Assembly (NCBI GenBank): GCA_948467675.1
Contig: CAOKFI010000001.1
Location: 25,159 to 89,158 of the forward strand
DNA from: an uncultured Porphyromonadaceae bacterium
Lineage (GTDB): Bacteria; Bacteroidota; Bacteroidia; Bacteroidales; Muribaculaceae
DNA: 64,000 nucleotides
Reading direction: 5' to 3'
Shown piece by piece: positions 1,887 to 43,096 of this stretch; the stretch's first letter is position 1, and every line of letters begins with the position of its first letter. The position numbers and the translations under genes are program-made. The notes below the pieces were generated by a model. The model had not been told where the DNA came from. It did no database searches and worked only from the letters and a program-made list of their open reading frames with translations.

Positions 1887-2468
1887 ATGGATATGCTGAA
1901 CCGTAAATTCATTCTGGCGAGTGGATCGCCACGGCGCCGTGAACTTCTTGGCATGCTTGGCGTTGACTTTACTGTAGATACCTCGCGTCAGGTAGACGAA
2001 AGAATTCCGGATGGAGTGTATATAGAAGCCGAAAAGATTCCTGAGTATCTGTCGCAGGTCAAGGCCGAGGCGTATCTGTCGGATTTGACTGACGATAATG
2101 TGCTTGTCACAGCCGACACGGTCGTAATTCTCGATGGCGATGTGATAGGTAAACCGGTCGATGAAGGCGATGCCAGACGTATGCTACGCCGGCTGTCCGG
2201 CCGTGTCCATAAAGTGGTTACCGGAGTGACTGTGGTTTCGTCCGGGAAGCGGAAGACTTTTTCGGAGACGACGGAGGTAGAGTTCGCTCCCATTTCCGAT
2301 GGCGAGATCGATTATTATGTCGATACGTTCCATCCGGTCGATAAGGCCGGGGCATACGGTATACAGGAATGGATCGGGGCTGTCGCCGTAAAAGGGCTGA
2401 GAGGCAGTTATTACAATGTTATGGGACTTCCTGTCAACAGGCTTTACCGCGAGCTTAAAGACTGGTAG
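1887..2468 (+). CDS. maf: Maf family nucleoside triphosphate pyrophosphatase
   Basis: 193 aa with the ILASGSPRRRELL N-terminal signature and KAGAYGIQE motif. Confidence 0.9.
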   Translation: MDMLNRKFILASGSPRRRELLGMLGVDFTVDTSRQVDERIPDGVYIEAEKIPEYLSQVKAEAYLSDLTDDNVLVTADTVVILDGDVIGKPVDEGDARRMLRRLSGRVHKVVTGVTVVSSGKRKTFSETTEVEFAPISDGEIDYYVDTFHPVDKAGAYGIQEWIGAVAVKGLRGSYYNVMGLPVNRLYRELKDW

Positions 2469-3609
2469 GCTGTTGCTCTACGGCCAATGTCATTCTGAAT
2501 CCCGGATGTGGCGGAATGAGGTTGAGTGTGCCTGCGCACAGCCGGAATCCATCAGCGATGAAATTGTCGGCATAAACCTCATTCGGAGCATATCTTACGG
2601 ATAGGATTCCGTGTCTTCCTTCGCTCATAATCCGTTTGTATAATTTATGGGCAACAATACCCATGGTCATTCTTAAATTGATTTCTACAGCTGGATTTAT
2701 GAGTGGCTCTGAGCCGTCGGACGGACGATATACCATCATATCGACTCCGAAATATCCGTTGTAGTGGTGGTGTATGCCTGTTCGGGCAAGAACCGATGCG
2801 GTTTCGGCTGCCGTCGATACGACACATTGTTCATCGATATGGCGGCCTATGCATGCGAGCAATTCATCGTCGGAGGCGACATGATTGCCGGAATAAGCGG
2901 TAGTTCCGTGTGAATTGAAAAACATGGAGTAGCCGATATGTCTTATTCCATCGTAACTGGCATGGTATAACGATGCAAAATCAACGACCTTGTCAAGAGC
3001 CGGTTCGAGCATTACAGATCCCTGATGTCTTATGATTCCTTCGGCCTGGCGCAGGATCTGTTTGCGAGGTATGGCCGAGCAGTCCACAACGCCGCGTCCG
3101 CTGCTTGACCATGGCGCTTTCATGAAAAAATGCGGATGGGCTGTGGCAAATCGTTCGAGATCACTGATATTTCTGGCTTCTATCGGCGTGGATGGCAACC
3201 GGTAGGCGAGCCGGGAGCGCAGTTTCTCCATCAGTATCGCTGCCGTACGTCGATGGCTTAGATCACGCATCTTTCTGATTTTGTCATCCCATTTTGTCGG
3301 ATCTATGGCGACCCCCATCTTAATGTACTGGCGTAGTGCGTGCATTGAGAATCCCCATGGCGCAGGTCTGACATGTGGCTCGGAGTCGTACAGAGCCGCG
3401 GGCAGGCTGAATAGCTGCCGCCGGTTTTCTATCCATTCTGGACTTGCATGAGGGGCATATATCATGTCGCCGTCGGTATCGGCATACCATAGAGGTAGCG
3501 CGGCTCCGGCATCGTGGAAATCGCGCACTGCGCGTGTCGGAGTATAATTGCAGTCGGTCTGGCCGAGTGCTATATCATTTTCGGGATTGAATAGAAACAG
3601 GCGTCTCAT
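2455..3609 (-). CDS. conserved hypothetical protein, weakly ATP-grasp-like
   Basis: 384-aa ORF with clean coding potential. The KAPWSSSGRGV and FGVDMMV motifs resemble ATP-grasp nucleotide-binding elements. The function call is tentative. Confidence 0.6.
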   Translation of the reverse strand: MRRLFLFNPENDIALGQTDCNYTPTRAVRDFHDAGAALPLWYADTDGDMIYAPHASPEWIENRRQLFSLPAALYDSEPHVRPAPWGFSMHALRQYIKMGVAIDPTKWDDKIRKMRDLSHRRTAAILMEKLRSRLAYRLPSTPIEARNISDLERFATAHPHFFMKAPWSSSGRGVVDCSAIPRKQILRQAEGIIRHQGSVMLEPALDKVVDFASLYHASYDGIRHIGYSMFFNSHGTTAYSGNHVASDDELLACIGRHIDEQCVVSTAAETASVLARTGIHHHYNGYFGVDMMVYRPSDGSEPLINPAVEINLRMTMGIVAHKLYKRIMSEGRHGILSVRYAPNEVYADNFIADGFRLCAGTLNLIPPHPGFRMTLAVEQQPTSL

Positions 3610-21734: not shown

Positions 21735-21752
21735 TAATTTTGTGTAATTTTG
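21735..21752 (+). promoter_or_regulatory. tandem TAnnTTTG -7 boxes, promoter of the riboswitch-led operon
   Basis: TAATTTTG occurs at 21735-21742 and again at 21745-21752, immediately upstream of the riboswitch aptamer. Confidence 0.5.
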
Positions 21753-21759
21753 TCGGCGT

Positions 21760-21955
21760 AATGGTTGCTCTGTCGTGAAGAGTCGCGGCTTTAAGGAGCA
21801 TCAAAAGGGAACGGGGTGAGATTCCCCGACAGTACCCGCTGCTGTAATTCCCGCTCACCGGTGGTGAGCAGACGAGTGTCGCAATATGTCACTGGCCGTA
21901 TCAAGGCCGGGAAGGCGTGACTACTCCGGGATAAGTCAGAAGACCTGCCATATAC
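21760..21955 (+). promoter_or_regulatory. cobalamin (B12) riboswitch aptamer
   Basis: Conserved elements AAAAGGGAACGGGGTGAGATTCC, CAGTACCCGCTGCTGTAA and GTCACTGG...GGGAAGGC are present, plus the B12 box AGTCAGAAGACCTGCC at 21934-21949. The boundaries are approximate. Confidence 0.88.
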
Positions 21956-22045
21956 GCCACTATAAGATTCGCCTACGGGATTATGGGCACAGGTCTCTGA
22001 TTAGAACATCCGTTCGAGATTGTTTTATCGTATATACACGTATAT

Positions 22046-22091
22046 ACTCCCGTTATAGCCCTCTTTGTGTGGCAATGACGGGAGTTTTTTT
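22046..22091 (+). terminator. riboswitch expression-platform intrinsic terminator (attenuator)
   Basis: actcccgt (22046-22053) pairs with acgggagt (22078-22085), followed by a T7 tract 26 nt before the receptor ATG. Confidence 0.7.
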
Positions 22092-22117
22092 GTATACCGA
22101 TAAACCGATTCAACCCA

Positions 22118-24112
22118 ATGAGGGCTAAATTATCCATACTGTTGATCCTTTTTTTTGCGTGGCAGTTGCCGGCAAAAGCCTACGATGCGGCCGATACTAC
22201 TCTGGTACTGAATGAAGTATCGGTTACCGCTGTGCGTCCACGAACTGAAATAATTCCGGCGCAGCAGCTGAGCGGCATTGAACTGCAGAAACTCAACAGC
22301 AACAGTGTGGCCGATGCTCTCCGTTATTTTTCAGGTGTGCAGGTCAAAGATTATGGTGGGGTAGGCGGTATAAAGACAGTGAATATACGGTCGATGGGAA
22401 CCAACCATACCGGTGTGGTCTACGACGGCGTGGAGCTTGGCAATGCACAGAACGGCCAGATCGATCTCGGTCAGTTCTCGCTTGACAATATCGAAGCGAT
22501 ATCGCTGTACAATGGTCAGAAAAGCGAGATATTGCAGCCTGCCAAAGACTTCGGTTCCGCAGGCAGCATATATATGCGTACACGTACGCCTCATTTTGAT
22601 ATCGGTGAAAGCTATCATCTCCGCGCTACCGTGCGTACCGGATCGTTCGGCCTGTTGAATCCCTCGGCGCTGGTGGAATTGAAACTTACGGAATGCGTCA
22701 GCGCGTCATTGAGCGCCGAATGGATCACATCGACAGGTAAATACAAATTTCGTTACCGCCGGGTGAATCCGGCCGGTGAGCTTGCCTACGATACCACAGC
22801 GGTGCGCGAGAACGGAGATATCAACGCTACCCGTATGGAATGCAACCTTAACGGAAACATAGCCGGCGGTGAATGGCATTTCAAAGTCTATAATTATAAC
22901 TCGGAGCGAGGTGTGCCCGGAGCTATTGTCAATAATGTGTGGCGCCGCGGCGAGAGGATCTGGGATACGAACTCGTTTGCACAAGGGCGTTTTACACGGA
23001 CATGGAATAGATTCACTACGCTGGCCAATATGAAGTATGCGTTTTACCGGACCCATTATGTCAACAACGATGACAAGCAGATAAAGATCGACAATCTTTA
23101 CCGTCAGCGAGAGTTGTATCTGTCATCGGCCAATGAGTATGCGTTCAGTTCTTGGTGGCGAGTATCGGTAAGTTATGATCTGCAGTGGAATGCCTTGCAG
23201 GCCGATATGTACGGCTTTGCGCGTCCCGACCGTCTGACCAATATGCTGTCGGCTGCCACAGCGATTGATCTCGGTCGTATGAAGGTGCAGGGCAGTGCTC
23301 TCGGCACATGGGTACATGATATATTGCGCGGCCAGCAGTCTCCGCCAGACAGGCATGTGTTTACTCCGGCGGTATATATGAGTTACGAACCGTTGCGTAA
23401 CCGGAATTTCGCTGTAAGGGCTTTCTATAAGCGGTCATTCCGTATGCCGACTTTCAATGATCTGTATTATGCCGATATGGGTAACTCAAAACTCAATCCT
23501 GAACGTGTGACACAATATAATGCAGGCATAGTCTACCGGCATGCCGGACGTGGAACTGTAAAGGCGGTGCGATTGAGCGCCGATGTCTACTATAATCATG
23601 TCCGCGATAAGATAGTGGCGTATCCGAAGGGACAGCAGTTCCGCTGGACCATGCTTAATCTCGGACTGGTGGATATACGCGGAGCAGATATCAGCGGTCT
23701 GCTGACATTGACTCCGGCTGAGGAGCTTGATGTGACGGTGAGAGGGCAGTATACATATCAGCGGGCTATAGATGTGACAGATCCGGCCGATAACTATTAT
23801 CGCGACCAGATTCCGTATATACCCCATCACTCAGGATCGGCTGTGGTGAATCTGTCGTGGCGCAGATGGGGGCTGAACTATAGTTTCATATATGTCGGTT
23901 CACGATACAACCAGCAGGAAAACATCAGATATAACTATACCCAGCCCTGGTATACGAGCGATGTTTCCGTGAGCCGAGACATTACTTTCGGTCGTGTGTC
24001 GATGCGTGCACTGCTTGAAATCAACAACCTGCTCAGTCAGGACTACGATGTGATTCTCAATTATCCGATGCCGAAACGTAATTTCAGGGTTACACTGACT
24101 GTGGAGATATGA
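22118..24112 (+). CDS. btuB: TonB-dependent receptor, BtuB-like (riboswitch-controlled)
   Basis: 664 aa with a signal peptide and a plug-domain pattern (NIRSMGTNHTGVVYDGVELGN). The long beta-barrel has alternating strands. The B12 assignment comes from the upstream riboswitch. Confidence 0.8.
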   Translation: MRAKLSILLILFFAWQLPAKAYDAADTTLVLNEVSVTAVRPRTEIIPAQQLSGIELQKLNSNSVADALRYFSGVQVKDYGGVGGIKTVNIRSMGTNHTGVVYDGVELGNAQNGQIDLGQFSLDNIEAISLYNGQKSEILQPAKDFGSAGSIYMRTRTPHFDIGESYHLRATVRTGSFGLLNPSALVELKLTECVSASLSAEWITSTGKYKFRYRRVNPAGELAYDTTAVRENGDINATRMECNLNGNIAGGEWHFKVYNYNSERGVPGAIVNNVWRRGERIWDTNSFAQGRFTRTWNRFTTLANMKYAFYRTHYVNNDDKQIKIDNLYRQRELYLSSANEYAFSSWWRVSVSYDLQWNALQADMYGFARPDRLTNMLSAATAIDLGRMKVQGSALGTWVHDILRGQQSPPDRHVFTPAVYMSYEPLRNRNFAVRAFYKRSFRMPTFNDLYYADMGNSKLNPERVTQYNAGIVYRHAGRGTVKAVRLSADVYYNHVRDKIVAYPKGQQFRWTMLNLGLVDIRGADISGLLTLTPAEELDVTVRGQYTYQRAIDVTDPADNYYRDQIPYIPHHSGSAVVNLSWRRWGLNYSFIYVGSRYNQQENIRYNYTQPWYTSDVSVSRDITFGRVSMRALLEINNLLSQDYDVILNYPMPKRNFRVTLTVEI

Positions 24113-25284
24113 CAATAGCCTTTCCGATGAAACATTTTATATTAATAATTCTTTCTATTCTGCCGCTCCTTACGGTCATCACGGGCTGTCGCGAGGACGA
24201 GCTCGTGGTGCCTTCGGAGTATGATATCATTCCGGAATCGCCATTGCCGGACACCTCCATCCGCGGATTCTATCTGGTGAATGAAGGCAACATGGGCTCG
24301 AATAAATGCACGCTCGATTATTTCGACTATTTCACCGGACTTTATGCACGCAATTTTTATGCTGAACGCAATCCGTCAGTGGTCAAGGAACTCGGTGATG
24401 TGGGCAATGACATTGGTATATACGGCTCACGGCTTTATGTGGTGGTCAATTGTTCCCATAAAGTCGAGGTGCTAGATGCACGCAGTGGTGTCAGGATCGG
24501 TCAGGTCGACATACCGAACTGCCGTTATGTGCGTTTTCACAGAGGCAAGGCATACGTAAGTTCTTATGTCGGCCCGGTTCTGATCGATCCGGCGGCTCCG
24601 AAGGGCGCTGTATATGAGGTAGACACGTTGTCGCTTCAGGTGACTAGGAAAGTTACGGTAGGGTATCAGCCCGAGGAGATGGAAGTGGTCGATGACTATA
24701 TGTATGTGGCAAATTCCGGTGGTTACAGAGCGCCTGATTATGACCGGACTGTATCTGTGATACAGATGATCGATTTCAAACAGGTACGGCAGATCGATGT
24801 CGGGATAAATCTCCACCGTCTGAAACAGGACCGTTATAAAAAACTGTGGGTATCGTCGCGTGGCGATTATCAGAGCCGCCCATCCAGACTGTATGTGCTG
24901 GAGAAGAGACCGGGTTACAATCAGATGGTCGTGTCGGATACTATACCGGTGGCATGTTCCAACATGGCGATACACGGCGATTCGCTATATTACTATGCTA
25001 CCGAATGGAACCAGTACACCGCCTCCAACACTATATCCTATGGCATAATCGATGTGCGGTCACGTGAGATTGTCTCGACTAATTTCATCACCGACGGTAC
25101 TGAGCGGGATATAACCGTGCCATACGGTATCGCTGTGCATCCGGAGACAGGCGACATATTCGTGACCGATGCGAAAAATTATGTAAGCAGCGGCACTCTG
25201 TATTGTTTCACCCGCGATGGCCGCCGTAAATGGAGCGTGCGTACCGGCGATATTCCTGCTCACATGGTATTTCTGAGACGATGA
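24109..25284 (+). CDS. surface beta-propeller lipoprotein (YncE/DUF5074-like; BtuG-type candidate)
   Basis: 391 aa (alternative start at 24127) with lipobox LTVITGC and the motif GFYLVNEGNMGSNKCTLDY. Its start shares an ATGA overlap with the receptor stop. The BtuG analogy rests on position only. Confidence 0.65.
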   Translation: MTIAFPMKHFILIILSILPLLTVITGCREDELVVPSEYDIIPESPLPDTSIRGFYLVNEGNMGSNKCTLDYFDYFTGLYARNFYAERNPSVVKELGDVGNDIGIYGSRLYVVVNCSHKVEVLDARSGVRIGQVDIPNCRYVRFHRGKAYVSSYVGPVLIDPAAPKGAVYEVDTLSLQVTRKVTVGYQPEEMEVVDDYMYVANSGGYRAPDYDRTVSVIQMIDFKQVRQIDVGINLHRLKQDRYKKLWVSSRGDYQSRPSRLYVLEKRPGYNQMVVSDTIPVACSNMAIHGDSLYYYATEWNQYTASNTISYGIIDVRSREIVSTNFITDGTERDITVPYGIAVHPETGDIFVTDAKNYVSSGTLYCFTRDGRRKWSVRTGDIPAHMVFLRR

Positions 25285-26471
25285 AGACAATGCGATATAT
25301 CTTTCCGATAGCGGCAGCGGTTATGGTAACCAGTTCGTGTACTGACGAAATACCGACGGTAAACCTCGGTATAGACGATGTATATTATGTGTACCGGATG
25401 CAGAAACTGCCGCTCGAATCGGCTCTGACAGGTGCAGAATACAGATGGACTGTCGATGGACAGCCGGTCTCTGATGAACGTTCCTATATATTTCTTGCCG
25501 GGACAGAGGGTGTGTATGATCTTACGTTCGATATAATAGATGACGATACGCCGTATCACTTCGAGTTTACGGTAAATGTTGTTCACGAGGAGGTGGAGTA
25601 CAGCCCGTACATATCCCGGGTATATGAGTACTGTCCGGCTCCCGGCCAGTTCATCAACAAGATGCCGCAGTACGATGCCGGCGATACGTATGCCGATATT
25701 CTTCGTAAGGCGGAGGAGTCGATTTCGGGCACGAACGATGTGATGATTTCGCTCGGAGGGTTCGGCGGCTACGTTACATTCGGGTTCGATCATACTGTTG
25801 TCAACGTGTACGGTGAATATGATTTCAGGATATGGGGCAATTCGTTTTATGAACTTACCGATCCGATCCGCCGCGGCGGATCGGCAGAACCGGGTATCGT
25901 AGCAGTAAGCTATGATGCAAATTGCAATGGACTTCCTGACGATCCGTTCTATGAGCTTGCCGGAAGCGAGTATTACAAGCCGTCGACCGTTCACGGATAT
26001 TCGATAACCTATATGTGTCCTGATCCTGACCGGGAACCCGATGCCGGCGATGACGGTTTTATTACCGATTCCAGATATATCTCATGGCATGATTCCGATG
26101 GTGGTAACGGATATATCGGCAAGAATCAGTTTCACGATCAGTCTTATTGGCCTGAATGGATTTCAGCAGCCAGTATGGATTTTTCAGGGACGAGGTTGGC
26201 CGACAATGGTATTGATACAAGCGGTACTGGGCGTTACTACATACTTTATTGCTATGACTGGGGGTATGTGGACAATCATCCAAACGACTATCCGGAACTG
26301 TGTTCGTTCGATATCGGATGGGCAGTGGATGATACCGGTATGCCGGTATTTCTTCCCGGTGTCGATTTCGTTCGTGTATATACCGGACTGAACCAACAAT
26401 GCGGCTGGCTCGGAGAGACCTCGACAGAGCTGTCGCGTGCTCAGGATTTACATATCGATCCACTTTTTTAA
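25281..26471 (+). CDS. lipoprotein of unknown function (PKD/Ig-like N-terminal domain plus unknown domain)
   Basis: ATG 25281 gives MKTMRYIFPIAAAVMVTSSC (lipobox). Its start shares an ATGA overlap with the upstream stop. The protein is 396 aa. Confidence 0.7.
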   Translation: MKTMRYIFPIAAAVMVTSSCTDEIPTVNLGIDDVYYVYRMQKLPLESALTGAEYRWTVDGQPVSDERSYIFLAGTEGVYDLTFDIIDDDTPYHFEFTVNVVHEEVEYSPYISRVYEYCPAPGQFINKMPQYDAGDTYADILRKAEESISGTNDVMISLGGFGGYVTFGFDHTVVNVYGEYDFRIWGNSFYELTDPIRRGGSAEPGIVAVSYDANCNGLPDDPFYELAGSEYYKPSTVHGYSITYMCPDPDREPDAGDDGFITDSRYISWHDSDGGNGYIGKNQFHDQSYWPEWISAASMDFSGTRLADNGIDTSGTGRYYILYCYDWGYVDNHPNDYPELCSFDIGWAVDDTGMPVFLPGVDFVRVYTGLNQQCGWLGETSTELSRAQDLHIDPLF

Positions 26472-26486
26472 TAATAAACCAATAGT

Positions 26487-29400
26487 ATGAGAATTAGACA
26501 TTTACTTTTATCTGCGGTAATTGCTGCAGGTGCGGTACCCGACAGTACTGCGACAGTAGATCTTGATGCTATCAGGAACTGGGCCGGCACAGGCGAAAAG
26601 CGAGCCGCTCTGGTAATTGATTTTCATGATGAGAAAGGCAACGATCAGGCTCTGGTGTGGGGTTACCGGTGGGACGGTAACGCATCGGGTGAGGATATGA
26701 TCCGTGCGATTGCCCGTTCGAGCCGTGTACTCGTGCTGATGACTCAGTATACGGGCAATATGGGTTCTACTGTCAATGGTGTAGGCATAGCGGCAGACCG
26801 TAATGAACTGTTAAGCTATCTGCGTTATGATTTCGATGGCGCGAGCAGTTCCGACAAAGTTGCGTTCGGATATTATGAACCGGAAACAGTCATGGGACAG
26901 ACTTCAGCTCCAGGTGCTAAAACTCCTGAACTCGTGCAATCGGCGATAGATGCCGCACGTATGACAGGTATCATAGATCATCCTCTCAATTTTTTGCGTT
27001 ACGGTTATGCGGCATACGATTATGATTTCTGGCAGTTGGATCCGGTAGTCGCCGATAGTCCCAACTATCGCTGGGAAGCGGCCTGGTACAAGGGGTACTG
27101 GCAGTTCTTTACCGGTGACGCCGACGGGGATCTGTCGTACTCCGGGCTCGGAATGTCGAGTGTGCAGCTATCGGACGGAATGGTAAATATGTGGACATTC
27201 GCGCCTGATTTCCAGCACAAGGATATGAGTCCGATAGACTATACAATAGAGGATTTCGGAGAGGAAATGACTCCGGGTCAGGAAGAAGCCTGCGCCATAG
27301 ACCTGTCGAAAATCCGGTTCTGGGTAGGAGACGGCGAGAAAGAAGCTGCTGTGGTACTTCAGTTCAATGATGGCAAAGGCCCTGAGAATCTGGTTTACGG
27401 TTATCGCTGGAGCGGCGGCTATGATAAAAGCTGTCAGGATGTGATCAAGGACATAGCCGAAGCTGATCCACGTATGACTCTTTCGGATAACGGGACGGTT
27501 ACGTATGAGTGCAATGATGACGGCAATCTGAACTATAACGACCATAATGCGACCAACGGAAACTGGAACGGCTATCTGCGCCGTAAGGTAGATACGGAAT
27601 ATCTGCGTGTGGCTGATATGAAGAAAGTTTTCGTGGCACCCGGTTCGGTATTTGTATATGCAAATTCCACTGATGACACTGTAGAACTTCCGTTTACTCT
27701 TTTCCGTCCTGCTTCCGACGACACACAGATCATATATCTGCCTGAGACACTGACTTACAGTATCAACGATACCCAGTGCGTGATACCAGCTTTCATACAG
27801 TATACACCGGATGTGGTGTCGCATGCGTCGACTGCGACGTGGGCTGTAGAGGGAGCTGCAAACGGTCTGCTTAAACTGACGGGCACCCAGATGCTATGCA
27901 AGGTAACACATAATGAACTGAAGCCGACCGAAGGTGATGTGACACTTAAAATCCGTGTGAATTACGAAGGGGGGAATGCCGACTATGTGTCCTCCAATGT
28001 ATGCCGTCTTATCGTCGCTGCGCCGGAGCGTCCCATAACATCGATGTCGTTTGAGAGTGCGACTATGGAGGTGGCTCTGAACAAGGCAGTCGTTAACCCG
28101 CTGGTAACAGATCCGGAAAATCCGACATATACGAAGGTCACATACACTACGTCGGATGCGTCGGTGATCAAAGTGAACTCCTACAACAATACTCTGACAG
28201 CGACTACGACTCCCGGTACTGCTGTCATTACAGCGACCTACGACTATGATCCGGAAATCAAGGCTGAGTTTACTGTAACTTCCAGGCTGATGAATCCTGT
28301 GACGGATATAAAGCTGCCGTTCGAGGGCAATGATGTGACTATCCCGTATAAGGGTGTTTTTGCCCTTCATGTATCTGTCGAGCCTGACGATGCCGATATC
28401 GCGGACTATAATATTGAGATCGCCGATCCGGATATAGTATCTGATTTCGGCAAAGGCAAATATGCATACGTGACTCTCGTCGCCCATAAACCGGGAGCAA
28501 CAACCGTGACCTTGACTGCGGCTGACGGATCCGGAGCTGAACGTGTGCTGAATGTGACTGTCGAGAAACCGGAGGACCAGGATCTGGACTTTACCAGCGG
28601 TACGTTCATTCTTAATGAAGAGTGGTTTGGTCATACCAACGGTTCGATCAACTATGTAGATGCTGACGGCATGATGCATTACCGTGTGGTGGGTTCCCGC
28701 AATGACGGACTGTCATTCGGTGCCACTTCCTGCTACGGTATGGTATGGGGCGGCAAGCTGTATGTCATGTCAAAGCAGCATCAGGACGGTGGCGATCCCA
28801 ATACCGGCGGCGGCCGTCTGGTCGTAGCTGATGAAAAGACTATGAAGATCGTGGCCAGATTCGACAATATAGGCGGAGGAGACGGTCGTGCCTGTGTAGG
28901 TGTAAACGAGTCGAAGATATATTACGGCTCGACTGCCGGTATCTTTACTTTCGATGTCGATAATCTGACCACAGGTTCTCTCATAGAGGGGACAGCCGGC
29001 AAGAACGCTTATTCAGGCCAGATAGGTGACATGGTATGTACCGGAAGCCGAGTATATGCCGTACAGCAGTCTACTGGTGTGCTGGTAATCGATACAGAAT
29101 CCGACTTGCTGATAAAGAAGATCGATGACACTACTGTGCAGGGTATAGCCCGTTCGATGGATGGAAATGTCTGGGTTGCATCCAAATCGAAGCTCACATG
29201 CATAGATCCTGCTACTGCTGAGATAATAGAAACCGTGGATCTGCCGTCAGGTCAGACCATAACCTGCGACTGGGGTTCATGGCGTCCGACACAGTTCTTT
29301 GCGTCAACTACTGAAAACCGTCTGTTCTGGGGCTTCACATCGTGGGAGATCGGAACCGATATAGCGACTGTGGCAGACAATACTTATGTGACGTCAGTCA

Positions 29401-30134
29401 AGGAGCTTCCGGGTGAAAATAACGGTATGCGCTACGGTACCTCCCGTCTGGATGAACGTACCGGCGAGGTGATAGTCATGACCACGAAGTCGTACGGACT
29501 CGATGCGGTGTTCAATACTTATCATTGGGTAGATTATAAGACAGGCGAGGTGAAAAACACTATAGTACCACAGGACTATTTCTGGTTCCAGGCGATGCCG
29601 GTTTTCCCTGATGCCCATGATCCTGAGATCTCACTTGCCAGGATCGATCTAAAGCCGTCGGATGAGCCGCTTGAGATAGACCTGGCCGATATCGTGACAG
29701 ACGGCGATGTCAATTTCCATCCGATGTCAATCGAGTGCCGTGTGGATGCTCCCGATAACGATGTCGTTTCGATCGATAAAGACGGCGGTCTGCTCCGTGT
29801 GTCTCCTAAAGCGGAAGGCGAGACTTCGTTTGTTCTGACAGCCCAGTCCAACGGCAAGGTGGTTTCGGCACGGATTCCGGTGACGGTTTCCAACACTACC
29901 AGTGTGGATGGTATCTCTACAAATATACATTCGATAACAGCAGCAGACGGATTGTTGACGGTCAAGGGATGTGCCGGATATGATATTGAGATCATATCGA
30001 TGTCGGGGCGTGCGGTATGTGCGTTCGGATGCGGTTCCGATCATGAGACTATACGTCCGGTCGTAGAGCCAGGTATCTATATCGTACGTGCAATGTCAAA
30101 TGAAGATACAATAATTGCTAAAGTAAAACTGTAA
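26487..30134 (+). CDS. 1215-aa multidomain cell-surface protein, T9SS cargo
   Basis: It has a signal peptide and two copies of an unknown module (from aa 23 and aa 270). Big_2-like Ig domains follow at ~aa 520-700. A DUF5074-like beta-propeller runs from F702 (TFILNEEWFGHTNGSINY) to ~aa 1042. A T9SS type-A CTD spans 29907-30131 (..GIYIVRAMSNEDTIIAKVKL). Confidence 0.8.
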   Translation: MRIRHLLLSAVIAAGAVPDSTATVDLDAIRNWAGTGEKRAALVIDFHDEKGNDQALVWGYRWDGNASGEDMIRAIARSSRVLVLMTQYTGNMGSTVNGVGIAADRNELLSYLRYDFDGASSSDKVAFGYYEPETVMGQTSAPGAKTPELVQSAIDAARMTGIIDHPLNFLRYGYAAYDYDFWQLDPVVADSPNYRWEAAWYKGYWQFFTGDADGDLSYSGLGMSSVQLSDGMVNMWTFAPDFQHKDMSPIDYTIEDFGEEMTPGQEEACAIDLSKIRFWVGDGEKEAAVVLQFNDGKGPENLVYGYRWSGGYDKSCQDVIKDIAEADPRMTLSDNGTVTYECNDDGNLNYNDHNATNGNWNGYLRRKVDTEYLRVADMKKVFVAPGSVFVYANSTDDTVELPFTLFRPASDDTQIIYLPETLTYSINDTQCVIPAFIQYTPDVVSHASTATWAVEGAANGLLKLTGTQMLCKVTHNELKPTEGDVTLKIRVNYEGGNADYVSSNVCRLIVAAPERPITSMSFESATMEVALNKAVVNPLVTDPENPTYTKVTYTTSDASVIKVNSYNNTLTATTTPGTAVITATYDYDPEIKAEFTVTSRLMNPVTDIKLPFEGNDVTIPYKGVFALHVSVEPDDADIADYNIEIADPDIVSDFGKGKYAYVTLVAHKPGATTVTLTAADGSGAERVLNVTVEKPEDQDLDFTSGTFILNEEWFGHTNGSINYVDADGMMHYRVVGSRNDGLSFGATSCYGMVWGGKLYVMSKQHQDGGDPNTGGGRLVVADEKTMKIVARFDNIGGGDGRACVGVNESKIYYGSTAGIFTFDVDNLTTGSLIEGTAGKNAYSGQIGDMVCTGSRVYAVQQSTGVLVIDTESDLLIKKIDDTTVQGIARSMDGNVWVASKSKLTCIDPATAEIIETVDLPSGQTITCDWGSWRPTQFFASTTENRLFWGFTSWEIGTDIATVADNTYVTSVKELPGENNGMRYGTSRLDERTGEVIVMTTKSYGLDAVFNTYHWVDYKTGEVKNTIVPQDYFWFQAMPVFPDAHDPEISLARIDLKPSDEPLEIDLADIVTDGDVNFHPMSIECRVDAPDNDVVSIDKDGGLLRVSPKAEGETSFVLTAQSNGKVVSARIPVTVSNTTSVDGISTNIHSITAADGLLTVKGCAGYDIEIISMSGRAVCAFGCGSDHETIRPVVEPGIYIVRAMSNEDTIIAKVKL

Positions 30135-30136
30135 TC

Positions 30137-31603
30137 ATGAACGTTACAAAAACCTTAATATCGGGAGCCATTATGATGTGGCTTCCGGTATTATCGGCCG
30201 ACGCGGCCGATATCGATTATACCGCTGGTATATTTGTTGTCAACGAAGACTGGTATGGACATCAGAATTCGACAGTGAACTATCTTCTTCCTGACGATCC
30301 GGACGGGAACTGGTGGCACTATCGTGTGATCCAGACCGAGAATCCCGGTAAGGAGCTGGGATGTACCAACCAGTACGGTGCTATCTGGGACGGCCGTTTC
30401 TATCTGATCGCGAAACAGGACAAGGATCCGGGCGCTTCTATAACCGGAGGACGCATAACGGTGGCCGATGCCTCGACAATGCAGATCGTGAAACAGCTAC
30501 AGCTTATAGATCCGTCGGGCAGTCAGTGCGATGGCCGTGCATTTGTCGGGGTGAGTACCACTAAGGGCTATGTCTCGTCGAGTAACGGTGTCTGGATTCT
30601 GGATCTGACGGCTCTGGAAATTACCGGACAGGTGGATGGAACCGGCAATTCGTCAGGCTCTCTCTATCTGGGTCAGGTCGGAACCATGGTGCTGGCCGAA
30701 GGAAAAGTATTTGCCGTGCATCAGCAGAATGGACTGCTCGTGATAGATCCGGAGTCAGACAGTGTGATAAAAGTCATAGATATGGATATTGTAGATGATG
30801 CTGTCGAGAATGCGACCGGCAAGCGTCCGACCAAGCCGTCCGGCATAGGATCGACAATAGTGCGTTCGAAGGACGGCTCCCTTTGGATCAATCTGGCCAC
30901 GAATGTGTCAGGGGGCGGTAGCGCACTGCCGTATCTGCTTCATGTCGATCCTGCCACACTTGATACAGAGGTCGTATCGCTCTCTGGCGATGGGATATAT
31001 CCGCCTTCCAACTCATGGTATGCGTGGACTCCGGATCCGTTCTGCGCGTCGTCGGAGACAAACACTCTCTATTGGTGCGGCGGAACGAGCAGTTGGTTTT
31101 CAGGCAAGATGATATTCCGTTATGATATCGATGCCGGTATATGTACGAAGATTGCCGATTTCAATACATTGGACGGAAACTGGCAGGTGTACGGCTGTTC
31201 GTTAGGCATACACCCGGATACCGATGAACTGTATGCGTCGCTGTATCATTCGTTTGGGGACAATACCTATATTGTGCGCCGTTTTAATAATGAGGGCGAG
31301 GTGATCCGGGACTATGAAATGATAGCGAACTACTGGTTTCCGTCACTTTTCGTGTTCCCGCAGGCCGGAGGTATCTCCGGTATAGATGCGCTGACTCCGG
31401 CGCAGGGCGGATACGTCGCCGTTTCGGGAGATAAGATCATGTTGCATGGGTTTGCCGGATGCGATGCCGCTGTGTATACGTTGTCGGGACAGTGTGTGTG
31501 CCGTATCCCTGTCACCGATGATATTCAACAGATCCCGGCGGCTCTTATTTCCGGCATCTATGTTGTACGAGTGGGCAATACCGTCAGCAAGGTCGTGATA
31601 TAA
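30137..31603 (+). CDS. 488-aa beta-propeller protein (DUF5074-like), T9SS cargo
   Basis: It has a signal peptide and the motif GIFVVNEDWYGHQNSTVNY. Its propeller is paralogous to that of the 1215-aa protein. A T9SS CTD spans 31373-31600 (..GIYVVRVGNTVSKVVI). Only 2 nt separate it from the upstream stop. Confidence 0.8.
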   Translation: MNVTKTLISGAIMMWLPVLSADAADIDYTAGIFVVNEDWYGHQNSTVNYLLPDDPDGNWWHYRVIQTENPGKELGCTNQYGAIWDGRFYLIAKQDKDPGASITGGRITVADASTMQIVKQLQLIDPSGSQCDGRAFVGVSTTKGYVSSSNGVWILDLTALEITGQVDGTGNSSGSLYLGQVGTMVLAEGKVFAVHQQNGLLVIDPESDSVIKVIDMDIVDDAVENATGKRPTKPSGIGSTIVRSKDGSLWINLATNVSGGGSALPYLLHVDPATLDTEVVSLSGDGIYPPSNSWYAWTPDPFCASSETNTLYWCGGTSSWFSGKMIFRYDIDAGICTKIADFNTLDGNWQVYGCSLGIHPDTDELYASLYHSFGDNTYIVRRFNNEGEVIRDYEMIANYWFPSLFVFPQAGGISGIDALTPAQGGYVAVSGDKIMLHGFAGCDAAVYTLSGQCVCRIPVTDDIQQIPAALISGIYVVRVGNTVSKVVI

Positions 31604-31622
31604 ATCAGCCTCTTACATATTA

Positions 31623-31665
31623 CCACATATAAAAGCACGGATAATCTCCGTGCTTTTATATGTGG
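31623..31665 (+). terminator. rho-independent terminator of the B12 operon
   Basis: A 19-bp perfect stem ccacatataaaagcacgga / tccgtgcttttatatgtgg with loop taatc lies 20 nt after the stop. Confidence 0.8.
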
Positions 31666-31884
31666 CATGAGGCCATTATATTTCAGCAATTTTATTTATT
31701 GATGAATGCTACATCCATCAATAAACTAATATAGGTCATGTTGAATTTGTAAATTATTTATTACAGTGGATAGTGCTGTTGTAATTCTTATTCTGATTTT
31801 GGAGTAACGGAGTGATGAACATATTTGTCTATTTGCAGGTGAATATGCAAATAGAATAAAAAGTATAATAGAATGCATTATAAA

Positions 31885-31916
31885 AATTGGCGTATATGCC
31901 AATTTTATTATCTTTG
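31885..31916 (+). promoter_or_regulatory. candidate promoter (TATCTTTG at 31909-31916) with adjacent palindrome aattggc-N6-gccaatt (31885-31904)
   Basis: A TAnnTTTG box lies 59 nt upstream of ATG 31975, and a 7-bp-arm palindrome lies immediately upstream. This suggests an operator for the HTH protein. Confidence 0.4.
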
Positions 31917-31974
31917 TAGCGAATTTTATCAACAAAGGAAGTGGCAGCAACACTTAAAATATGGCATTCTAACT

Positions 31975-32466
31975 ATGAATAAAAAAATCAAAGAATTCAT
32001 GAAGCGGGATTTCCAGTCAAAGGCCCTAATTGTGGATACAAAAATGGTGAAAGTAGAAGCTCCTGATGGAGAAGTATTTACTTTGTGCTGCGATATTGGG
32101 AAATATATTAGTGAGGAAACCCGAGAATATATGCTTCATATGCTTGAAGCAATATTCGATAAGAATTTCTCTATGGATAAGGAACAAATGGTTAATGCTA
32201 TTTGGCGTGATTCTTTTGTTTATGGAGTTTCTTTCTTAGGTATCAATTCAGGTGACAGACATGGGGAAAGAATAAGAATAGGCAATAAAATTAAGCAAAT
32301 TCGTGAGGAAAGAAATATGGATGCACGAGATTTAGCTAAGCTGGCGAATATTGATGCAGCAAATCTTAGTCGGATTGAAAAAGGAAAATATTCTGTTGGA
32401 CTTGATATCTTATCTAAAATTGCAGCCGTTTTAGGGAAAAAAATTGATTTTGTTGATTTAGCATAA
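31975..32466 (+). CDS. XRE-family HTH protein with unknown ~100-aa N-terminal domain
   Basis: ATG 31975 is preferred over 31873 because the promoter box lies between them. The C-terminal HTH_3 motif is IGNKIKQIREERNMDARDLAKLANIDAANLSRIEKGK. The protein is 163 aa. Confidence 0.7.
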   Translation: MNKKIKEFMKRDFQSKALIVDTKMVKVEAPDGEVFTLCCDIGKYISEETREYMLHMLEAIFDKNFSMDKEQMVNAIWRDSFVYGVSFLGINSGDRHGERIRIGNKIKQIREERNMDARDLAKLANIDAANLSRIEKGKYSVGLDILSKIAAVLGKKIDFVDLA

Positions 32467-32472
32467 GTCGTT

Positions 32473-33522
32473 ATGGTGGATATAGATGATTTCAAAGTCG
32501 AAGTGATTTGTGAATATAAAGGTGAAACGTATTCAGTACGTGATAATGGTGCTATTATGAGACATCATAAGTGTAATTCACGGTTAAGACCTTTGGATGG
32601 CAAATGGACTTTTGGCATTAAGAACAAAGATAATGGATATATGTTTTTTGCTTCAAATGTCCGTGTTCACCAAGTTGTGGCGACTGCTTTCTGGGGGCAT
32701 ATGAAAGAGGATGGTATGGTCGTTGATCATAAAGATACTAATAGGTGTAATAATAGAGCTGAAAATTTGCATTGGGTGACAAAACTCGAAAATGTTTTGA
32801 ATAATCCGATTACTCGTCGCAGAATAATTAATATATGTGGAAGTATAGTTGCCTTTCTTGAAGATCCGACTTTGTTGCGAGAAAGTACAGCAGATTATAA
32901 TTTCACATGGATGCGTACAGTATCTAGAGAGGAGGCTGCAAAATGCAAGGCGAATTTAGAAAAATGGAGTCAAGAAGATGCAGATTTTATTTCTACTGTG
33001 CGCGGTAATGGTATTGGTGAATGGATATTCAGTGACATACGTCCGATGAGACAAAATAATGATATGGATCAAGGAATTGCAAGATCTGGATTCCCGATAA
33101 AACAAAACAAAGAACTTGAGAAAAAAGCTATGTCATCATTAATAGAGTCATTAACTGCCAATGCTATGCAACAGTATTGGCTAACACCTACTGAGTTTCC
33201 CTTATGTCCGATTGATATTTTGTCATTGGAAACTTACTACTCATCTTTGGAAAAAGGAAAAGTTTTTTCAAAAAATATTCATGGTGCACAAACAATCATA
33301 GAGATTGCTATATCTAATGATAATAAGGAGTTGTGTGTTGCTACTCATAATCCTGAAGGCATAAAGCATTGGTATATAACATACGTATATATATCAGACG
33401 ATAAGTATATTCATAAAAATGGAGGCTCTTTTTTTGACGAAAATGGAGTATTAAAAGAGATAACATTATTTCAAGGTAAAGAATGGACTGGTGGTGATTG
33501 TATAGATGATTACTGCTTATAA
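32473..33522 (+). CDS. NUMOD4/HNH (HNH_3) endonuclease fused to unknown C-terminal domain
   Basis: 349 aa with the NUMOD4-like GETYSVRDNGAIMR and the HNH core VHQVVATAFWG...VDHKDTNRCNNRAENLHWVTKLEN. It starts 6 nt after the upstream stop. Confidence 0.75.
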   Translation: MVDIDDFKVEVICEYKGETYSVRDNGAIMRHHKCNSRLRPLDGKWTFGIKNKDNGYMFFASNVRVHQVVATAFWGHMKEDGMVVDHKDTNRCNNRAENLHWVTKLENVLNNPITRRRIINICGSIVAFLEDPTLLRESTADYNFTWMRTVSREEAAKCKANLEKWSQEDADFISTVRGNGIGEWIFSDIRPMRQNNDMDQGIARSGFPIKQNKELEKKAMSSLIESLTANAMQQYWLTPTEFPLCPIDILSLETYYSSLEKGKVFSKNIHGAQTIIEIAISNDNKELCVATHNPEGIKHWYITYVYISDDKYIHKNGGSFFDENGVLKEITLFQGKEWTGGDCIDDYCL

Positions 33523-33992
33523 ATAGAACTACATAATGTTAGTCATTTTGATAGATTTCTAATAGATAGGTTGATATAAACATTTAATCAAATGTGTTAA
33601 ATTTAGATTTATTATGTGTAGATTTCGCATACACAGAAATGTACATACTTTTGGTGGCTTGTGATATAGAATCGTCATAGGAATTGTGATATTTGTTATG
33701 GATGTCGGGATGTGGAGTCCGGTGCATTTCTATAGCGTGTTGGAATCAGGATCTTCGGCTCCGCGTTCTTGCGTTGGGTCTATGAATGTGTGATTTCGCC
33801 ACATGCTAACTGATTGAGCTACACACTAAATCGGCATGTCTTTAGGCGAGGCTCTATATCAGTATTGCTGAGACACTGGTCTCAAGCGTACTTATTTGCT
33901 TAATGAAATAACTTGGGTGCAGAACAGATCGCCGCTACGATTATGGTAGAACGGACTGTAGGAGCAGTAGTAGGAGCAGACAAGGCTATTGA

Positions 33993-42232: not shown

Positions 42233-43096
42233 TCAGTATACCACAATTTCGCCCGATTTTATCGCCATGTCGTACAATTCTTTCCGCAACTTACGGTCAT
42301 ATTCCATGCGACGTGTGGCAATAAGGCGCTCCAGAATTTCCGGTTTTGCGATTTCCAGCGGTTTGACTGATCCTACAGGGAGGTATTCAGTGATTGCGAG
42401 CAGATATACAGATCCCCCCCGGGATGTGTCAAGAAATTTATGAGTCCGCAGAAAGTGGTCTGGATTCGTTCCGAAATCATACGGAATCATGTTTTTCACG
42501 GCGCTCCATTCGACCCATCGGTCGCGGAAGTATTCGTAACTCACGTCAGTGTCGTCGCATGCTTTCTCAAGGCGGTCTATATCGTCGGCTTTGTCGGACC
42601 GGTACCATTTCCGAATGTCGGACAGTGAATGCGAATCGTCCGGCAGCCTGACATAAATGCCTTTTATCAACGGCTCGGAGGTGCGCAGCTGTTGCTTGTG
42701 GGTTTCGTAATATGTTTCGATTTCGTCATCACCCGGAGCTGCGTCGGTATTCTGGTCGAACATCCGTCTGCGGTACTCACGCATGATCAAATCCCGGCGG
42801 TATTCGGCCACCATAGCGTCGATATCGCGAGTATCATTAATGTTTGCAATGGCGAGTTCGTCGATGATCTCGTCGTCGATCCAATTTGCAATAAAGGATT
42901 TTGCGAATTTCACACTATCCTCCGGAGTCAGTCCGTAGGGGATCGCTTTCTGCAGGTCCTGGCGTGACAGGGTGGCAGAGCCTACTTTAACCAGTATATC
43001 CCCTTGGCCGGATGTCTCTTGTGGGCTGCACGAGACGGCAGCCAGCGCAGTCAACGCGGCAAAGGGGATATACAGAACCGGAATCCGGAACATCAT
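42233..43096 (-). CDS. SurA-N-domain-like chaperone lipoprotein (no obvious parvulin motif)
   Basis: 287 aa with lipobox AAVSC. It sits in the PPIase cluster, and its start overlaps the stop of the upstream PpiD-like gene by 4 nt. Confidence 0.65.
   Translation of the reverse strand: MMFRIPVLYIPFAALTALAAVSCSPQETSGQGDILVKVGSATLSRQDLQKAIPYGLTPEDSVKFAKSFIANWIDDEIIDELAIANINDTRDIDAMVAEYRRDLIMREYRRRMFDQNTDAAPGDDEIETYYETHKQQLRTSEPLIKGIYVRLPDDSHSLSDIRKWYRSDKADDIDRLEKACDDTDVSYEYFRDRWVEWSAVKNMIPYDFGTNPDHFLRTHKFLDTSRGGSVYLLAITEYLPVGSVKPLEIAKPEILERLIATRRMEYDRKLRKELYDMAIKSGEIVVY

Follow-up and report, generated by a model that had tools for sequence, protein, structure and literature searches.

A riboswitch-led corrinoid uptake operon of Muribaculaceae with putative type IX secretion cargo as accessory binders

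Introduction

How are the accessory proteins of a vitamin B12 uptake operon held at the bacterial surface if they carry the signals of type IX secretion system (T9SS) cargo rather than those of lipoproteins? This question is raised by a five-gene operon in a stretch of 64,000 nucleotides (hereafter the window) from an uncultured Porphyromonadaceae bacterium placed in the Muribaculaceae (contig CAOKFI010000001.1, positions 25,159 to 89,158 of the forward strand). Database records of the proteins in the window come from metagenome-assembled genomes of Muribaculaceae, and genome labels are throughout the submitters' own. Corrinoid import across the outer membrane has been described for BtuB and BtuG, which form a pedal-bin transporter (PMC10404256), and the newest review (September 2026) speaks of Bacteroidota "lipoprotein-assisted relay systems". 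With a probability of roughly 0.8, we read the present locus as a corrinoid outer-membrane uptake operon that shares its core with operon 1 of Bacteroides thetaiotaomicron and displays its accessory binders differently, by way of the T9SS.

The cobalamin riboswitch and the gene layout

The only Rfam family with a match in the window is the cobalamin riboswitch RF00174, which is found directly upstream of the operon with 93.9 bits (E 4.5e-22) against a gathering score of 31.5 bits; all 189 model positions are aligned, and the B12 box AGTCAGAAGACCTGCC is positioned exactly at 21934-21949. Between the aptamer and the first start codon lies a stable terminator hairpin followed by a U7 tract, as expected of an expression platform. 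Its hairpin (22046-22085) has a fold energy of -22.4 kcal/mol (z -5.55) that was equalled by none of 200 shuffled sequences, and 26 nt separate the end of the terminator from the ATG. The 3' arm of the terminator recurs as the motif ACGGGA at about 21975-21980, which could, judged by its sequence, act as a candidate antiterminator. The operon is closed by a second hairpin of -30.8 kcal/mol (z -10.0). A simple terminator scanner returned 10 sites in the region compared with 8.8 in shuffled sequences, which is chance level, and both terminators are therefore called from their fold energies; the output of a promoter scanner was likewise at chance frequency. The main elements, all on the plus strand, are as follows.

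21745-21966, plus strand: cobalamin riboswitch aptamer including the B12 box (RF00174 covariance model)
22046-22092, plus strand: leader intrinsic terminator or expression platform (hairpin 22046-22085 and U7 tract, by fold energy)
22118-24112, plus strand: btuB (open reading frame 1, ORF1; 664 aa), TonB-dependent corrinoid transporter and BtuB1 orthologue with Plug and TonB-barrel domains (8blw_A match)
24109-25284, plus strand: btuG (ORF2; 391 aa), seven-bladed propeller surface lipoprotein (lipobox ..ITGC, then REDE)
25281-26471, plus strand: btuH (ORF3; 396 aa), lipoprotein combining a PKD-like domain with a B12-binding domain of the BtuH type (..TSSC, then TDE)
26487-30134, plus strand: ORF4, multidomain protein of 1215 aa that begins with a Sec signal and ends in a sorting domain (domain map below)
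30137-31603, plus strand: ORF5, 488 aa, Sec signal followed by a BtuK-type propeller and a C-terminal domain (CTD) (PF16819, 9s6c match)
31623-31665, plus strand: operon-closing terminator hairpin (19-bp stem; UUUUAU after the inner GC-rich stem)

The length of ORF3 is counted from the start MKTMRY, the longest open frame beginning at 25230. An ATGA overlap of 4 nt, which takes in the stop codon of the upstream gene, joins btuB to btuG and likewise btuG to btuH, and these junctions are followed by gaps of 15 nt and 2 nt. A preliminary description made from the sequence had proposed a riboswitch with its B12 box, a leader terminator, five genes joined by ATGA overlaps or gaps of 16 nt or less, and a closing terminator; each of these elements lies where it had been placed, and the junctions agree.

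The Btu core of the operon

Sequence comparison clearly identifies the first three genes as orthologues of B. thetaiotaomicron BtuB1, BtuG and BtuH. ORF1 matches BtuB1 (8blw_A) with an E of 5e-124 over aa 44-662 and remains below the NCBIfam cut-offs for BtuB of the E. coli type, as expected in this lineage. ORF2 aligns with the propeller half of the BtuGH fusion (8blw_B, aa 35-362; E 1.1e-39) and also matches the further BtuG structures 8bmz, 8p97 and 3dsm, while ORF3 aligns with aa 393-662 of the same chain (E 2.9e-73) and with BtuH2 (7biz; E 5.5e-44) and contains a PKD_3 domain detected by Pfam. Because ORF2 and ORF3 match opposite halves of 8blw_B, we regard them as a split form of BtuGH. 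The receptor and the two lipoproteins which the preliminary description had left without closer identity can thus be named BtuB1, BtuG and BtuH. By inspection, the N-termini of ORF2 (..LLTVITGC-REDE) and ORF3 (..TSSC-TDE) each present a lipobox cysteine followed by acidic residues, a known pattern of surface-exposed lipoproteins of Bacteroidota, and the pattern is repeated in relatives.

The core is subject to some variation among related loci. In L008, L017, L036, L055 and L073 the riboswitch runs directly into btuG and the operon lacks btuB, and the transporter gene is therefore not a constant member of the unit in Muribaculaceae. Another locus (L082:11367-14644) has an extra btuB-btuG pair downstream of its ORF5-like gene.

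BtuK-type propellers in the distal genes

The two distal genes encode larger proteins, the domains of which are arranged as follows.

26547-27296, plus strand: ORF4 N module 1 (aa 21-270), no Pfam family
27297-27776, plus strand: ORF4 N module 2 (aa 271-430), incomplete repeat of N module 1 (46% identity over its first 63 aa, E 3e-14)
27777-28586, plus strand: ORF4 middle region (aa 431-700), probably immunoglobulin (Ig)-like repeats (homologues with PF02368, Big_2, and named Ig-like)
28587-29621, plus strand: ORF4 DUF5074 (BtuK-type) propeller (aa 701-1045; PF16819, 9s6c match)
29622-29891, plus strand: ORF4 Ig-like spacer of putative fold before the CTD (aa 1046-1135; the segment recurs in homologues)
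29892-30131, plus strand: ORF4 sorting domain at the C-terminus, similar to T9SS type A (TIGR04183 below cut-off; family profile matched to gingipain CTDs)
30212-31366, plus strand: ORF5 propeller (aa 26-410; PF16819)
31367-31600, plus strand: ORF5 CTD (aa 411-488; TIGR04183 16.4 bits, member of the tail alignment A3 described below)

Both proteins contain a DUF5074 domain (PF16819), with 326 bits in ORF4 and 384 bits in ORF5. Of the domains that the preliminary description had proposed to look for, DUF5074 is accordingly present, whereas Big_2 was not found in ORF4 itself at E <= 0.01 (Pfam) and is seen in homologues only. The DUF5074 propeller family has already been characterized, as BtuK, since 2025 (PMC12751083; PMC13616437). 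The only relative of the two propellers among PDB sequences is 9s6c (E 3.4e-7 for ORF4 and 2.9e-9 for ORF5), which is BtuK1 (BT1486) bound to cyanocobalamin according to a 2026 review (PMC13616437). BtuK1, a lipoprotein composed of a PKD domain and a seven-bladed propeller, binds B12 with nM-pM affinity; its paralogue BtuK2, which also has a lipoprotein signal, shows no binding (PMC12751083).

The residues by which BtuK1 contacts its ligand, namely Glu23, Trp25, His28, Thr60, residue 62, Lys76, Glu77 and residue 102 (PMC13616437), map onto E37, W39, H42, T77, Q79, K93, Q94 and Q120 of ORF5 in an alignment with 9s6c of low overall similarity (E about 1e-9, alignment accuracy 0.69). ORF5 retains all eight mapped contact positions, one of them as Glu to Gln, and the eight positions are invariant columns across 36 aligned homologues. 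Corrinoid binding by ORF5 is predicted from the conserved loop and contacts; its anchoring signal differs from that of BtuK1. ORF4 in turn keeps the loop (NEEWFGH, with its E, W and H), the Thr and the Lys of the BtuK1 site. For the residue indexing, the number in the paper was taken as the 9s6c chain index plus 12. On this basis the deposited 9s6c chain has Gln at both residue 62 and residue 102, for which the review (PMC13616437) gives Asn; the discrepancy reflects either a slip of naming or numbering in that paper or a flaw in our indexing; in the ORF5 family, the corresponding positions Q79 and Q120 are invariant Gln. The signal peptides of ORF4 and ORF5 have no Cys, and the ORF5 propeller begins at aa 26 with no PKD domain before it. 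Since the lipobox and, in ORF5, the PKD domain are missing, we class both proteins as BtuK-like rather than as BtuK proper.

C-terminal tails of the T9SS type

Signal peptides were assigned by visual inspection and with a regular expression rather than by SignalP. On inspection, ORF4 and ORF5 begin with Sec (SPI) signals, MNVTKTLISGAIMMWLPVLSADA/AD and MRIRHLLLSAVIAAGAVPDSTA/TV, respectively, and their final 80 or so residues run to ...EPGIYIVRAMSNEDTIIAKVKL in ORF4 and ...ISGIYVVRVGNTVSKVVI in ORF5. Individually, the two tails score below the TIGR04183 cut-off of 23 bits (see below), and the ORF4 tail gives 22 bits with DUF6383. The family gives a clearer signal. Alignment A3 was made from the last 90 residues of each of 140 related proteins, ORF5 included; TIGR04183 is matched by 69 of these tails at E < 0.01 (best 2e-9), DUF6383 by 25 and PF18962 by 13. 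The A3 profile matches the structures of the T9SS CTDs of the gingipains RgpA and RgpB (7pq4, E 7.8e-8; 5hfs, E 2.6e-6; also 5ag8 and 5ag9) as well as two further T9SS tails, both C-terminal (8glk_D and the end of 9x1i). On the strength of the A3 profile and of the matches of related tails, the tail belongs, at the level of the family, to the T9SS type A CTDs.

Relatives of ORF4 and ORF5 show the same combination of signals. Non-lipoprotein signal peptides are present in 179 of 191 relatives, and a C-terminal motif G-[IV]-Y-[IV]...K is kept in 83 of 98 proteins with a propeller only (K), in 42 of 45 with N module and propeller (NK) and in 38 of 48 with an N module only (N). Across the loci, lipoboxes are found in BtuG and BtuH, and ordinary signal peptides in the N, NK and K proteins, a recurring split which indicates that a lipoprotein core with a CTD-bearing periphery is the design of the whole family. 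Distant relatives in operons of a similar kind are assigned to PF18962 outright, and one Muribaculaceae homologue has been named a T9SS type A sorting domain protein by PGAP. The preliminary description had recognized type A-like tails on the two large proteins; this holds for the family and for the missing lipobox cysteine, each of the two proteins taken singly remaining under the cut-off.

Cargo of the same type also occurs in the DNA that flanks the related loci, for example with 28.7 bits for TIGR04183, which is above the cut-off. Clusters of large proteins with the CTD motif are found at L060:11505-21327, L072:13188-21193, L061:14239-20016 and L063:18989-21367, and the flanking CTD proteins include an M6-type metalloprotease and one protein above the TIGR04183 cut-off. 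These proteins indicate a sizeable repertoire of T9SS-type cargo in Muribaculaceae. A preprint likewise predicts T9SS cargo in this family (PMC13404670) and is the only such paper found for Muribaculaceae or Muribaculum together with T9SS or PorV. On the contig of the window itself, about 8.5 kb past its right end (L087:19058-20671), is encoded a 537-aa outer-membrane protein resembling FadL/Toluene_X, the only hint of T9SS machinery in this genome. Its PorV/PorQ match of 33 bits stays below the cut-off of 90, and PDB sequences gave no match; it is preceded by a 429-aa protein without a family match.

The N module of ORF4

The N-terminal part of ORF4 is made up of a module with the conserved motifs WxGxG, VWGYRW, YGYPAYDYDxW and GWYxGYWSYW, which in many relatives is encoded by a separate gene, as a protein of about 320 aa that has a signal peptide and a CTD of its own. 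The module has no Pfam match at E <= 1 and no PDB sequence match with a 32-sequence profile. In a search of 1.84 billion representative proteins, its profile recovered 1562 clusters (50% identity) at E <= 1e-3, and many members of the family hold 2-10 copies of the first 90-100 residues. An AlphaFold2 model of N module 1 reached a predicted local distance difference test (pLDDT) of 91.9 and a predicted template modelling (TM) score of 0.90, yet Foldseek returned no significant match for it in the PDB (best E 0.53). About a third of the 44 weak matches are chains of transcobalamin or intrinsic factor, to which a DUF4430 protein is added; TM-scores of 0.63-0.69 for these transcobalamin-type and DUF4430 matches are normalized to targets of about 100 aa. 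The beta domain of transcobalamin and intrinsic factor and DUF4430 (5NO0, 3U7Z) thus dominate the weak matches, but the N module differs from the transcobalamin beta domain in being about 250 aa long, in carrying a large helical insertion and in having no sequence similarity to it, and we treat the likeness, which comes from a model, as a lead only. The model of the second copy is poor (pLDDT 65), and its Foldseek matches are noise. Membership of the N module in DUF4430 was rejected on the Pfam and Foldseek results given above, and membership in BtuJ/DUF4465 on the former.

The genomic linkage of the N module to riboswitches is the stronger evidence and outweighs that from structure. In distant homologues of 30-38% identity, RF00174 lies upstream on the same strand in five of six contexts, L096 being the single one without a riboswitch. 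The contexts with a riboswitch are the following.

L089 and L090: riboswitch, N-module gene with CTD (L089:10001-10987), DUF5074-PF18962 gene
L092 and L093: riboswitch, then Peripla_BP_2, a TonB-dependent transporter, DUF5074, Big_2, the N module (L092:10001-10990) and a 1294-aa DUF5074-PF18962 protein
L094: riboswitch immediately before the N-module gene (L094:7941-8858)
L095: riboswitch context in the termite-gut Bacteroidales bacterium Barb6XT (L095:802-1710)
L091: riboswitch context (L091:10001-10897), with SBP_bac_10 and a PEP-CTERM protein as neighbours

The neighbours in L091 suggest that this locus belongs to a phylum other than Bacteroidota. The N module, with its large family, is a candidate for a new B12-binding domain.

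Conservation across related loci

A scan of species representatives, with one genome per species, found 411 encoded relatives of ORF5; the counts of loci given here refer to the best 80 loci, all of which are from Muribaculaceae-type genomes. Among these best 80 loci the order is constant: riboswitch, btuB, btuG and btuH are followed by one to four genes with N module and/or DUF5074, and the ORF5-like gene comes last. When seven loci were tested with Rfam, RF00174 was present upstream on the same strand in six, and a covariance model built from the riboswitches found in this way was then run on all 80. It recovered a riboswitch in 49 loci, which are all of the 49 with upstream sequence. In the other 31, the first recognized operon gene lies no more than 267 nt from the edge of the available sequence, so that the absence is attributed to a leader lying outside the sequence. 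Homologous loci without a riboswitch, which the preliminary description had named as evidence that would count against it, were looked for in this set: with 49 of 49 assessable loci, the linkage is essentially universal.

Comparison with known systems

The closest described system is Btu operon 1 of B. thetaiotaomicron (BT1486-BT1491), which consists of btuK1-btuK2-btuH1, a riboswitch and btuB1-btuGH-btuJ1. Both operons have a cobalamin riboswitch, a BtuB1-type transporter, a BtuG propeller, a BtuH domain and two DUF5074 propeller proteins, and both are devoid of btuFCD. No btuFCD-type gene was found in the window or within 10 kb past either end; the preliminary description had taken this absence as a distinguishing mark, which it is not, as operon 1 lacks these genes as well (PMC12751083). 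The operons differ in several respects. BtuJ (DUF4465) is missing from the present operon, btuG and btuH are two genes instead of a BtuGH fusion, and the BtuK-type genes stand downstream of btuB, whereas they are upstream of it in operon 1. ORF4 adds N modules and Ig-like repeats, and ORF5 has no PKD domain before its propeller. Above all, the accessory proteins of operon 1 are all lipoproteins, whereas the BtuK-type proteins here have Sec signals and T9SS-type CTDs.

In their architecture the latter resemble proteins of Porphyromonas gingivalis. RgpA, RgpB and the haem-binding HBP35 share with ORF4 and ORF5 a Sec signal and an Ig-like domain before a C-terminal beta-sandwich signal of about 70-80 aa, and the common role would be to acquire nutrients at the cell surface and on vesicles. 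Unlike the gingipains, the cargo considered here consists of riboswitch-controlled homologues of corrinoid binders, for which secretion, CTD cleavage and attachment to anionic lipopolysaccharide (A-LPS) are predicted by analogy. In the literature searched, neither Btu proteins nor B12 uptake were linked to the T9SS, in line with the earlier remark that such an arrangement was not known to be characterized; in a paper on Chryseobacterium, a DUF5074 protein appears in a list of T9SS-associated genes, with no connection made to B12. What appears to be new, as far as the searched literature goes, is therefore the T9SS-type anchoring of the accessory binders and possibly a new binding domain, the core being already known.

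Proposed mechanism and alternative explanations

In the mechanism that we propose, a plentiful supply of cobamide would keep the aptamer bound, the leader terminator would form and transcription would halt before btuB, while under scarcity the five-gene unit would be transcribed as a single message. BtuB would then serve as the TonB-dependent channel, BtuG as its surface lipoprotein lid and BtuH as a second lipoprotein binder or surface relay. ORF4 and ORF5 would pass the inner membrane by Sec and be exported through the T9SS as directed by their CTDs, which the sortase PorU would remove, so that the proteins become attached to A-LPS on the surface of the cell and of its outer-membrane vesicles, or are released. 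Outside the cell, the BtuK-type propellers would capture corrinoids and pass them to BtuH, BtuG and BtuB; the N modules of ORF4 probably capture corrinoids too. CTD proteins of P. gingivalis are enriched on vesicles. BtuK, BtuJ, BtuH and BtuL are enriched on those of B. thetaiotaomicron (PMC12751083), and as both groups are vesicle-enriched elsewhere, a vesicle-borne corrinoid trap would be a reasonable extension of the mechanism.

Several observations weigh against this interpretation. With TIGR04183, ORF4 scores 16.9 bits (21.7 bits and E 1.5e-4 for the tail alone) and ORF5 16.4 bits, both under the cut-off, and none of porK, porL, porM, porN, sprA, porU and porV was found in the reachable 84 kb (the window and 10 kb on each side; Pfam, NCBIfam and precomputed annotation). 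These two results would fit a B12 operon in which the CTDs are structural Ig-like or beta-sandwich modules and ORF4 and ORF5 are periplasmic or reach the surface by another route, as would the preference of some tails for DUF6383, whose function is unknown, over PF18962 (matched by 25 and 13 of the 140 tails, respectively). We nevertheless consider such an explanation quite improbable: the tail is always located at the extreme C-terminus and the T9SS motif is kept in most of the 191 relatives, the A3 profile aligns end to end with solved gingipain CTDs, the tail-bearing proteins consistently lack the lipobox that BtuG and BtuH of the same operons possess, unrelated flank proteins of related genomes bear the same tail above the TIGR04183 cut-off, and the PGAP label on one Muribaculaceae homologue points in the same direction.

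Further points against our interpretation concern binding and transcription. BtuK2 is a close paralogue of BtuK1 and does not bind B12, so that homology alone is no proof of corrinoid binding, and ORF4 has a Cys at the position of ORF5 Gln79, at which BtuK1 also has Gln. ORF4 and ORF5 might hence be T9SS surface proteins which do not bind free corrinoids and instead dock to host or microbial B12 carriers, cells or particles, or organize vesicle release in the manner of BtuL, which promotes such release without binding B12 (PMC12751083); the Ig-like repeats deduced for ORF4 from its homologues are typical of adhesins. This appears unlikely in view of the eight mapped BtuK1 contact positions, kept in ORF5 and invariant across the family, of the binding loop NE[DE]W[YF]GH, which is the most conserved motif of the family (and was also used as a search pattern), and of the control of ORF4- and ORF5-type genes by a B12 riboswitch in every assessable locus. 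Finally, an internal promoter is known in B. thetaiotaomicron operon 1 (PMC12751083), and a sigma-70-like match is located just before ORF4 (26447-26475), such matches occurring at chance frequency; the distal genes could accordingly form a separate transcription unit downstream of btuBGH and outside riboswitch control. That they do so is very improbable given the short gaps of 15 and 2 nt at the btuH-ORF4 and ORF4-ORF5 junctions with no terminator between the genes, the gene order kept in 80 loci, and the N-module and DUF5074-CTD genes of L089, L094 and L095, which have a cobalamin riboswitch of their own directly upstream. Expression of the five genes from a single transcript is plausible from their layout, and B12 control of the distal genes would hold either way, because other lineages provide them with their own riboswitch.

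Extending the proposed mechanism beyond the present locus is a more tentative step, for which we would put the chances at somewhat less than even: a T9SS-dependent Btu relay in Muribaculaceae and some environmental Bacteroidota, in which secreted or A-LPS-anchored BtuK-like propellers and N modules would act as corrinoid traps at the cell surface or on vesicles. The N module would then be a so far unnoticed domain for corrinoid capture that is shared across phyla, with a fold possibly related to the beta domain of transcobalamin.

Other features of the window

Directly after the operon terminator lies an island of low GC content (31870-33530; 0.36 compared with about 0.50), which encodes a helix-turn-helix (XRE-type) protein and an HNH endonuclease protein and was found in all four exact-match contigs examined; it looks like a small foreign insertion. 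Two conserved open reading frames on the minus strand, 2455-3609 (384 aa) and 42233-43096 (287 aa), have no convincing family in Pfam or NCBIfam. The second of them is flanked by two genes for peptidyl-prolyl isomerases of the SurA-like type.

Significance for corrinoid acquisition in Muribaculaceae

Gut communities are shaped by competition for B12 and related corrinoids, and Muribaculaceae are dominant in the mouse gut and common in humans. The model of B12 uptake in Bacteroidota rests on one species, which has no T9SS. If the interpretation given here is true, corrinoid capture would depend on a second secretion machine, and T9SS cargo would come under the control of B12 riboswitches. A candidate for a new class of B12-binding domain is provided by the N module, whose family exceeds 1500 sequence clusters. 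Binders that are covalently tethered to lipopolysaccharide or shed from the cell would, moreover, change who profits from the captured B12.

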